The notes under the pieces were generated by a model. That model ran no database searches and was not told the DNA's origin. It saw only the letters and a program-made list of their open reading frames with translations. The position numbers and the translations under genes were made by a program. Below are positions 1,051-1,919 of a stretch of DNA of 22,143 nt, piece by piece; positions within the stretch are counted from its first letter, which is position 1; every line of letters begins with the position of its first letter. The stretch comes from a virus (Duplodnaviria; Heunggongvirae; Uroviricota; Caudoviricetes), in the IMG/VR virus record IMGVR_UViG_2703718843_000010; one strand, 5' to 3'.

Positions 1051-1371
1051 TTAACCAGTTTGTGTCTCTGAGCGGTCTGATCCAGTTGACTCTGGCCCAA
1101 TGTGTGCGAGGGCCGGTGCGATTTGACCAGCTTGAGGGGCGGTCTTATCAGTCATTAGCCAGAGCGTATATTTTGCAAAACGGGGGTGTTGTGTGATCTT
1201 CAACAAAATTTCACTACCAACGCCTTCTCTTCTCCCCATCTCGTAATGCTTTTGAGTACCTGCCGGAATACCTGTCAATTCAAAGAATTGAGTTCTGGAT
1301 AGCCCTTCAGCATCCCTAATTGCTCGAATTTTTTCCCCAATCCCGCTTGACTGGGTCTCATTTGATACCAT
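1051..1371 (-). CDS. C: Immunity repressor, P2 C-like
   Basis: 106 aa from ATG at 1369-1371 with SD GGAGAAGGA upstream on the minus strand. C-terminal part FAKYTLWLMTDKTAPQAGQIAPALAHIGPE resembles remembered P2 C (FTKYTLWFMT...GQIAPALAHFG). The track ORF extends upstream only via a TTG at 1428, which I do not accept as the start. Confidence 0.85.
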   Translation of the reverse strand: MVSNETQSSGIGEKIRAIRDAEGLSRTQFFELTGIPAGTQKHYEMGRREGVGSEILLKITQHPRFAKYTLWLMTDKTAPQAGQIAPALAHIGPESTGSDRSETQTG

Positions 1372-1405
1372 ATCCTTCTCCTTAGTGGGTCTCAATTGAT
1401 ACCAT
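1353..1405. repeat. Imperfect 19-bp direct repeat GGGTCTCA(T/A)TTGATACCAT at 1353-1371 and 1387-1405, flanking the repressor RBS
   Basis: Read directly: 18 of 19 positions identical, 34 bp apart. Copy 1 contains the repressor start codon and first six codons; copy 2 lies just upstream. Confidence 0.8.
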
Positions 1406-1587
1406 TGCAACGAAAAGGCAACCGCCAATATAAGCAGTTACAAGCCGAAATAAGCGCCTAGCGCTAATGCGGAGATTAGCACAAATGAGTGGAAGACTTG
1501 AGCAGGGCAACAGAAGTGACGGAATCCATGTTGCTGAATTCCGCCGTAGTTATTTCCCAAATGGACGTTATGCGGGGACGGTTAAAA

Positions 1588-1824
1588 CTAGTGGCTCCGC
1601 TTCGGGGACAGTGAGGCGGCAAGTTCAGCTTTAGCAATGTATTGCTGAAGGAAGGTTACGGTGTCTTTTGCTTGCTCAACGGTTAAACCAGTAAACAGCT
1701 CACCAGCTTCTGGCAGTTTTGTCGGTGTAGCTAAGTGGTAGTGGAAGCGTAAGCAAGCCAGATCATTAGCAACGAGGTACTCAAGTTCAGCAGGAATGTA
1801 GATAGGTACTTCTTTCTGAGACAT
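1588..1824 (-). CDS. Hypothetical protein (78 aa) between repressor C and cox, same strand as C
   Basis: ATG at 1822-1824 preceded on the minus strand by AGGAG at 8-nt spacing; protein MSQKEVPIYIPAELEYLVANDLACLRFHYHLATPTKLPEAGELF... has no motif I recognise. P2 itself has no gene at this position. Confidence 0.5.
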   Translation of the reverse strand: MSQKEVPIYIPAELEYLVANDLACLRFHYHLATPTKLPEAGELFTGLTVEQAKDTVTFLQQYIAKAELAASLSPKRSH

Positions 1825-1862
1825 AAAAATCTCCTTTCTGGTTGTGTGGAAACACCAGAATA

Positions 1863-1879
1863 CCACGCGCCGGGCGTGG
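1863..1879. promoter_or_regulatory. GC-rich palindrome CCACGC-GCCGG-GCGTGG in the divergent region between the 78-aa ORF and cox; candidate operator
   Basis: Perfect 6-bp inverted arms read directly, about 40 bp upstream of both flanking start codons. Confidence 0.3.
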
Positions 1880-1919
1880 CTAAAAATCCCGGCCTATCTT
1901 CAATGAGAGGTGAAACACT

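Follow-up and report, generated by a model that had tools for sequence, protein, structure and literature searches.

The DNA analysed here (the window) is a single stretch of 22,143 bp. It opens with an integrase gene, followed on the same strand by the gene for a 106-aa immunity repressor of the P2 C family and, on the opposite strand, by a Cox-family gene. Two copies of a direct repeat, labelled O1 and O2, lie at the start of the repressor gene together with predicted promoter elements and a short ORF, and a cassette is found between this block and cox (Table 1). Based on the gene order, the homology to P2 C and the match to phiT5282H (an Enterobacter phage of the Peduoviridae, 95% identical over 82% of the window), the region is identified as the int-C/cox switch of a P2-like prophage.

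Table 1. Features of the predicted switch region. Arrows give the direction of reading on the minus strand.
Feature	Position (nt)	Strand	Details and evidence
Integrase gene	1–981	minus	Start of window
Immunity repressor gene, 106 aa, P2 C family	1051–1371	minus	phmmer, PHROGs, ORF, strong Shine-Dalgarno
Putative immunity module	1170–1417		Repressor HTH half, O1, -10 and O2; divergence from phiT5282H
Predicted Pe -35, TTGACT	1347–1352	plus	Promoter consensus scan; inside repressor codons 7–9
O1 (candidate operator unit)	1354–1369		16-bp imperfect dyad, halves GGTCTCAT and TTGATACC, 6/8 symmetric pairs; full copy 1352–1371
Predicted Pe -10, TATCCT	1371–1376	plus	Between repressor ATG and its Shine-Dalgarno (opposite strand)
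Repressor Shine-Dalgarno, AAGGAG	1383→1378	minus	Read from sequence; between O1 and O2
Mini-ORF MVSIETH, seven codons and stop	1382–1405 (1405→1382)	minus	ATG inside O2
O2 (candidate operator unit)	1388–1403		16-bp imperfect dyad, halves GGTCTCAA and TTGATACC, 7/8 symmetric pairs; full copy 1386–1405
13-nt insert	1406–1418		TGCAACGAAAAGG; between O2 and the conserved upstream block
Tentative repressor promoter Pc	1427–1454	minus	CTTATT (1454→1449)-16-TATATT (1432→1427); manual reading
Cassette, 456 bp	1464–1919		Between the operator/Pc block and cox
Small ORF, 49 aa	1485–1634	plus	Pe direction; GGAGA Shine-Dalgarno at 1471–1475
orf78, 78 aa	1588–1824	minus	Same direction as repressor
Hairpin-rich sequence	1862–1893		ACCACGCGCCGGGCGTGGCTAAAAATCCCGGC; just upstream of cox
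Cox-family gene	1920–2201	plus	Pfam Phage_Cox, E = 1e-23

The 106-aa protein matched the crystallised P2 C repressor (2XCJ/2L49) with a phmmer E-value of 3.5e-25, residues 8–106 aligning with P2 C residues 2–99 (full length), and it matched phrog_147 in PHROGs (E = 2.4e-36). Its identity to WPhi C is 58.5%. Traits of the P2 C type are present throughout, namely an N-terminal HTH, a C-terminal dimerisation part and the GQIAPALA motif (GQIAPALAH). The recognition helix, helix 3, spans approximately residues 37–45 (AGTQKHYEM). In P2 C, alanine scanning indicated that the helix with Tyr36 and Gly32 mediates operator binding, Tyr36 being essential (PMC2995052); the equivalent positions in the window repressor are 42 and 38, respectively. 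The Shine-Dalgarno sequence of the gene is strong, lies 6 nt upstream of the ATG and is conserved throughout the clade of close relatives defined below.

The repeat itself consists of two 19-bp copies on the plus strand, GGGTCTCATTTGATACCAT (1353–1371) and GGGTCTCAATTGATACCAT (1387–1405), and can be lengthened by one base to 20 nt (1352–1371 and 1386–1405), in which form it reads TGGGTCTCA[T/A]TTGATACCAT with 19 of 20 positions identical and a start-to-start distance (period) of 34. On the minus strand, the proximal copy comprises the repressor ATG (1371–1369) and the first six codons, such that repressor residues 1–7 (MVSNETQ) are encoded by O1, and the distal copy opens a seven-codon ORF. 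The initial annotation had described a 19-bp direct repeat with copies 34 bp apart, the repressor RBS between them, and an upstream copy forming the mini-ORF MVSIETH without an RBS. The coordinates and the shuffles described below bear this out, the repeat being one base longer than first noted; AAGGAG does lie between the copies, and the mini-ORF reads ATG GTA TCA ATT GAG ACC CAC TAA with no Shine-Dalgarno sequence.

Only two matches to the repeat occur in the 22,143-bp window at ≤3 mismatches. Shuffled windows contained a mean of 0.01 matches and none of 100 shuffles contained two, hence the two copies are well above chance. Similarity between the copies is limited to 20 bp, and the 14–15 bp after each copy are unrelated. 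A search of the whole window for further distal copies, as might permit looping, found none besides the two units at ≤3 mismatches to either the 19-mer or the 16-mer; the exact 8-mer half-sites had three extra occurrences, all isolated and unpaired.

The sole plus-strand sigma-70-like site found by the promoter scan in the repressor-to-cox spacer is TTGACT-18-TATCCT (9/12 consensus matches). This predicted early promoter, Pe, points away from the repressor gene and towards cox, and its -10 is flanked by the repeat copies: O1 occupies the 18-nt spacer and overlaps nt 3–18 of the repressor ORF, and O2 begins ~5 nt past the predicted start (near 1383), at about +5 to +20. The TTGAC of the -35 is invariant in all 36 loci of the clade. 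In relatives the -10 is TAACAT or TATATT at the same spacing, and the TAnnnT positions are kept in 35 of the 36 loci. The distance to the conserved Glu codon of helix 1 is 11 nt for the -35 of the window and 12 nt for the mapped -35 of WPhi Pe (both counted from the sequences), hence the predicted Pe is positionally homologous to that of WPhi. Predicted Pe and cox are ~540 bp apart in the window, with the cassette and its opposite-strand gene between them, and ~85 bp apart in cassette-less relatives. One locus carrying type B repeats (L042) has TAACAC rather than TAACAT as its -10, thereby losing the conserved final T; its early promoter is possibly crippled and the prophage may be decaying.

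In the P2-type switch the repressor promoter, Pc, faces Pe and the two transcripts overlap. A consensus scan for a convincing minus-strand promoter upstream of O2 detected none. The tentative Pc given in Table 1, from which transcription would start near 1420, has 8/12 consensus matches, below the scan threshold, and lies inside a block without differences between operator types A and B, but it is preserved neither in type C, where the -10 is lost, nor in L058. The only minus-strand scan match, TTGAGA-17-TATGGT (1395→1367), was rejected as Pc, as it lies inside O2/O1 and transcription from it would begin only past the repressor ATG. The match is probably fortuitous, owing to the TTGA that the half-site contains. 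Type C carries TTGACA-16-TATGGT at this place.

Comparison with related immunity regions had been proposed as a check in the initial annotation. Our sample comprised 104 loci with a gene for a relative of the repressor, to which P2, WPhi, SEN5 and phiT5282H were added, and the surroundings of every start codon were searched, unsupervised, for their best direct repeat. As a positive control, the repeat finder ranked the established half-sites of both P2 (ATCTAAAC, period 22) and WPhi (GTCACCAATA, period 34) as top direct repeats. With a cut-off of ≥80% repressor identity to the window, a clade of 36 loci was defined, and in these 36 loci repeats were present at one and the same position in three sequence types, with both copies altered in concert. 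Type A (GGTCTCA[T/A]TTGATACC, period 34) was found in nine loci including the window, type B (GGTAGGGATCTCTACC and GGTGGTAATCTCTACC, period 33) in 25 loci including SEN5 and phiT5282H, and type C (GGATTCATATGACACC and GGTGTCAA[A/T]TGACACC, period 33) in two. The helix-3 variant paired with the repeat type in 36 of 36 loci, being AGTQKHYEM with type A, AGTQKYYET with type B and ASTQKQYET with type C; repressor residue 42 is accordingly H, Y or Q.

These patterns bear on the relic of a short duplication suggested in the initial annotation, here read as a tandem duplication without function at the start of the repressor gene. A tandem duplication would leave such a pair of copies at a 34-bp distance, and the arrangement could have begun in this way. 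However, a duplication would have copied the spacer, and only 20 bp are similar; furthermore, a relic would not be expected to exist as three repeat sequences at one position, in which the two copies change in concert and correspond to the recognition helix. O2 is also invariant in non-coding DNA, being identical in all nine type-A loci, even where its flanks are unrelated. Thus in L057 and L058 the DNA beyond O2 is unrelated to that of the window and the repressor carries 21 substitutions relative to the window's, almost all of them C-terminal (in L058, all outside helix 3), yet both O1 and O2 are unchanged. The conservation of O1 is confounded with its coding role. The comparison lends no support to a duplication relic, to which we assign next to no probability.

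Aligned with phiT5282H, the window has 27–30 of every 30 positions identical (93–100%) up to ~1170, 18–24 of 30 across 1170–1439 (60–80% across 1170–1417), and 100% identity from 1418. The diverged stretch corresponds to the HTH half of the repressor gene and both repeat units, and we interpret it as a swapped immunity module. It was also considered that the copies are sites for a protein other than the repressor, such as Cox, integrase or a host factor, since direct repeats also serve as targets of Cox and Int in P2-like phages (PMC3448106, PMC7498355). A Cox box, however, should follow Cox among relatives, and identical Cox proteins are shared by loci of repeat types A, B and C, while type-A repeats are also found with a Cox that is only 64.5% identical; the repeats therefore track C, not Cox. 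Similarly, the integrase end is 93–100% identical between the window and phiT5282H, yet the repeats differ. The repeats co-vary only with the repressor HTH, and recognition by another protein is scarcely credible.

The second reading put forward in the initial annotation was a translational leader, in which the mini-ORF would be translated and would tune repressor translation by coupling or occlusion. The TAA of the mini-ORF overlaps the repressor AAGGAG, and a stop codon overlapping the next Shine-Dalgarno sequence is a layout typical of coupled ORFs. The upstream ATG would, moreover, lie within the mRNA if Pc sits at its tentative place. Yet the mini-ORF, whose ATG (1405–1403) falls outside the 16-bp dyad apart from its G, is devoid of a Shine-Dalgarno sequence of its own, and its frame, length and ATG are not kept in relatives: the period of 33 in types B and C (27 loci) puts the upstream ATG, where present, in frame with C, the mini-ORF stop is lost in L030–L032 (CAACAAGG) and the ORF runs on, and the ATG is absent in L034, which has CGT on the plus strand. 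The conserved entity is a DNA 16-mer, not a reading frame or peptide. We therefore judge the mini-ORF to be a by-product and not a functional leader peptide, and a leader to be very unlikely. The duplicated start codon and the mini-ORF would instead follow solely from the overlap of O1 with the start of the repressor gene. Hence the likeness of MVSIETH to MVSNETQ, initially described as mimicry, is genuine but carries no independent meaning, reflecting an operator copy over the gene start in a mini-ORF that is not conserved.

Every unit is, in addition, a 16-bp imperfect palindrome, in one register throughout types A, B and C. Symmetric pairs number 6/8 in O1 and 7/8 in O2 for type A, and 7/8 and 5/8, respectively, for type B; in type C, O1 scores 6/8 and O2 scores 7/8 in L034 and 8/8 in L053 (GGTGTCAATTGACACC). 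The outer GGT...ACC of the dyad is constant across types, and between A and B two symmetric pairs are changed on both sides (T-A to G-C; A-T to G-C). A lone 7/8 palindrome is unremarkable in 22 kb, with six such 16-mers observed in the window versus 8.5 in shuffles, hence the case for a dyad rests on register and co-variation in three related types. The premise of the initial annotation that P2-type repressors bind direct and not inverted repeats consequently applies here in one respect only, as the relation between the copies is that of direct repeats, whereas the sequence within each copy forms an imperfect inverted repeat.

Dyads of this kind could also act at the RNA level by folding into hairpins, within either the repressor leader or the Pe transcript, that control translation or stability. 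Each dyad is able to form a small hairpin, and a 96-nt fold of the window leader gave z = -2.4, with the Shine-Dalgarno sequence paired with CCUUUUC at 1408–1414. Over -52..+30, however, the window leader gave z = 0.01, and other subtypes gave different structures with z from +0.06 to -1.9; folding across subtypes detected no shared or significant leader RNA structure. The anti-Shine-Dalgarno sequence lies in the 13-nt insert, which is restricted to type-A loci with the upstream block (the window, L029–L033 and L005) and occurs neither in L057/L058 nor in types B and C. The pairing of CCUUUUC with the Shine-Dalgarno sequence is weaker in L030–L032 and absent in types B and C. Positions that break the dyad symmetry show no G-U pattern, and neither the fixed position relative to the -35 and -10 nor the co-variation with helix 3 is explained by RNA folding. 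An RNA-level element thus appears extremely unlikely.

We consider it very probable that the copies are O1 and O2 of the operator of the P2 C-type immunity repressor, and that this operator shuts off the early lytic promoter Pe. The proposal of an autoregulatory operator in the initial annotation is strongly supported in its operator part by the predicted Pe geometry and the helix co-variation; autoregulation would be at most secondary, with Pe as the main target. In the proposed arrangement the repressor gene is read leftward, and Pe, built into the start of that gene, would be read rightward to cox. Its -35 would fall in codons 7–9, O1 would fill the 18-bp spacer over codons 1–6, the -10 would sit between the start codon and the RBS, and O2 would follow just past the transcription start. 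One repressor dimer would occupy each 16-bp unit, and two dimers 34 bp (about 3.2 turns) apart would jointly occlude the -10 and start region of Pe. Occlusion of Pe would keep the lytic operon off, maintaining lysogeny and providing superinfection immunity. With both units placed between the tentative Pc and the repressor ORF, bound repressor might in addition reduce transcription of its own gene; autoregulation has been reported for P2 C (PMC3448106, PMC1904263).

Each copy probably binds one symmetric dimer, unlike the non-palindromic half-sites of P2, since each unit is dyad-symmetric. This fits the structure of P2 C, a symmetric dimer reaching two consecutive major grooves with one dimer per half-site, whose authors were puzzled by the pairing of a symmetric dimer with non-palindromic 8-bp repeats (PMC2995052). 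A rough family-wide test found significant dyads downstream of the Pe -35 in 13 of 51 immunity types versus 2.5 expected, a count that is indicative only, given that the test used mononucleotide shuffles and phylogenetically related types; P2 and WPhi had none. The test anchored the window, L032 and L058 wrongly on a TTGATA inside O1, the correct pairing for the window being 6/8 and 7/8. Clearly palindromic repeat units, 22–34 bp apart at Pe, were seen in the switch regions upstream of the repressor start in L090, L064, L071 (8/9), L026 and L070. Examples of palindromic units elsewhere in the C family are GGAACCTATATAGGTTCC (9/9, L090), GCCTATATAGGC (6/6), TGGAGGCAATTGCCGCCA (8/9) and ATCCTATATAGGAT (7/7). 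The units of L016/L069 are not palindromic, like those of P2 and WPhi.

A tentative generalisation, on which we are divided and lean slightly towards doubt, is that in this clade each copy is a complete dyad operator read symmetrically by one C dimer, and that possibly about a quarter of C-family immunity types are alike. If this is true, the reading of non-palindromic direct repeats by P2 C would be a degenerate special case and not the family rule, and the natural palindromic variants would be a tractable system for studying how the C dimer docks on DNA. O1 encodes the N-terminal tail of the repressor (MVSNETQ, MVEIPTP or MVSYESL across types), hence operator and arm are forced to co-evolve, and the arm might touch the operator.

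The region between the operator and cox is variable. The 456-bp cassette of the window is absent from phiT5282H, in which only 100 bp separate C from cox, and in SEN5 the position is occupied by another insert, of ~800 bp and with two genes. The cassette also occurs (95–99% identity) at the same spot beside type-B operators and beside an unrelated immunity type (L062), and a version at 75% identity is found in L088 and L010. Within the early leader, this position appears to be a hot spot of mobile insertions. One of the two ORFs in the cassette, orf78 (MSQKEVPIYIPAELEY...), stays a 78-aa ORF in the copy at 75% nucleotide identity and is therefore taken to be a real gene, which may be a lysogen-expressed moron. 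The other, of 49 aa and possibly a first early gene, overlaps the 3′ end of orf78; part of its core FRRSYFPNGRYAGTVKTSG is retained in the diverged cassette (FRRRYFRNGSYAGSIKTSGG). Searches of Pfam, PHROGs, NCBIfam and PADLOC gave no match for either ORF. At the junction, GCGGAGATTAGCACAAATG is similar to the ribosome-binding region of cox in phages that lack the cassette. The hairpin-rich sequence upstream of cox is common to the unrelated insert of SEN5 and several other loci, and may represent a cassette boundary, or a Cox or terminator element.

The switch described here would define the immunity determinant of a group of P2-like (Novemvirus/Senquatrovirus-type) prophages of Enterobacter, Kosakonia, Salmonella and Erwinia; our own literature search on the switch of this clade, including SEN4/SEN5 and phiT5282H, found no description of it. 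Three heteroimmune classes are predicted, a few recognition-helix residues apart (H/Y/Q at 42; M/T at 45) and each with a matching 16-bp site, which together form a compact natural experiment in shifting repressor/operator specificity. The dyad symmetry of the sites is also relevant to the recognition of asymmetric half-sites by a symmetric C dimer. In terms of annotation, the call for the same repressor gene is 117 aa in SEN5 (L001, 1602–1955), where the in-frame ATG within O2, further upstream, was taken as the start, and 106 aa in phiT5282H (L002, 1602–1922), where the ATG with the Shine-Dalgarno sequence was taken. The operator repeat accounts for these conflicting start-codon calls.

Among known systems, WPhi is the closest in geometry. 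Its half-sites, their 34-bp distance and their flanking of the Pe -10 were established experimentally (PMC1904268, PMC1904263), and its sequence has CAT directly abutting TTGACA-17-TATATT; TATTGGTGAC occurs within the spacer and a second time 34 bp further on. The window and WPhi thus share the repressor family, two direct repeats 34 bp apart centre to centre that flank the Pe -10, one in the Pe spacer and one just downstream, and a -35 similarly placed relative to repressor helix 1. They differ in sequence specificity and in the units themselves, as the WPhi half-sites are 10 bp long and not significantly palindromic, whereas those of the window are 16–20 bp and dyad-symmetric. Furthermore, the WPhi C start codon abuts the -35 and both half-sites are non-coding, whereas the window ORF is ~8 codons longer, running through the -35 and O1 with its ATG abutting the -10. 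In vivo, both units were required in WPhi, as they were in P2.

P2 likewise has a homologous repressor, direct repeats flanking the Pe -10, a Pe -35 that overlaps the start of C, and C and cox operons that are face to face (PMC2995052). In the annotation of the P2 record, O1 and O2 stand on either side of the Pe -10, and the -35 lies inside the first C codons. P2 spacing, however, is 22 bp and not 34 bp, and its half-sites are 8 bp, non-palindromic and both upstream of the ATG; a lone half-site is not bound by P2 C (PMC1904263). P2 Hy dis has the same repressor family and two direct repeats at Pe (PMC1904268), but its half-sites are 8 bp, 26 bp apart and flank the -35 instead of the -10. Outside the family, C.Esp1396I and the lambdoid OR sites (P22 c2) resemble the window in having a dyad unit that is repeated directly, with one symmetric dimer per unit, and P2 C is structurally similar to both the C.Esp1396I controller protein and P22 c2 (PMC2995052). 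These belong to other protein families and have different spacing (15 bp in C.Esp1396I, about two turns in lambdoid OR), hence the likeness is one of mechanism and not of membership.

All P2 C-family traits that could be tested in the window were found, namely a C homologue, direct repeats within 22–34 bp, flanking of the predicted Pe and helix-matched heteroimmune repeats, with the exception of the non-palindromic half-sites shared by P2, P2 Hy dis and WPhi, a trait we view as descriptive and not as defining membership. The operator pair is ordinary for this phage family, its minor twists being that the copies are palindromic and that one lies inside the first codons of the repressor. From its sequence, the switch is best described as a further immunity specificity of the known P2 C/Pe-operator system, with a geometry closest to that of WPhi.
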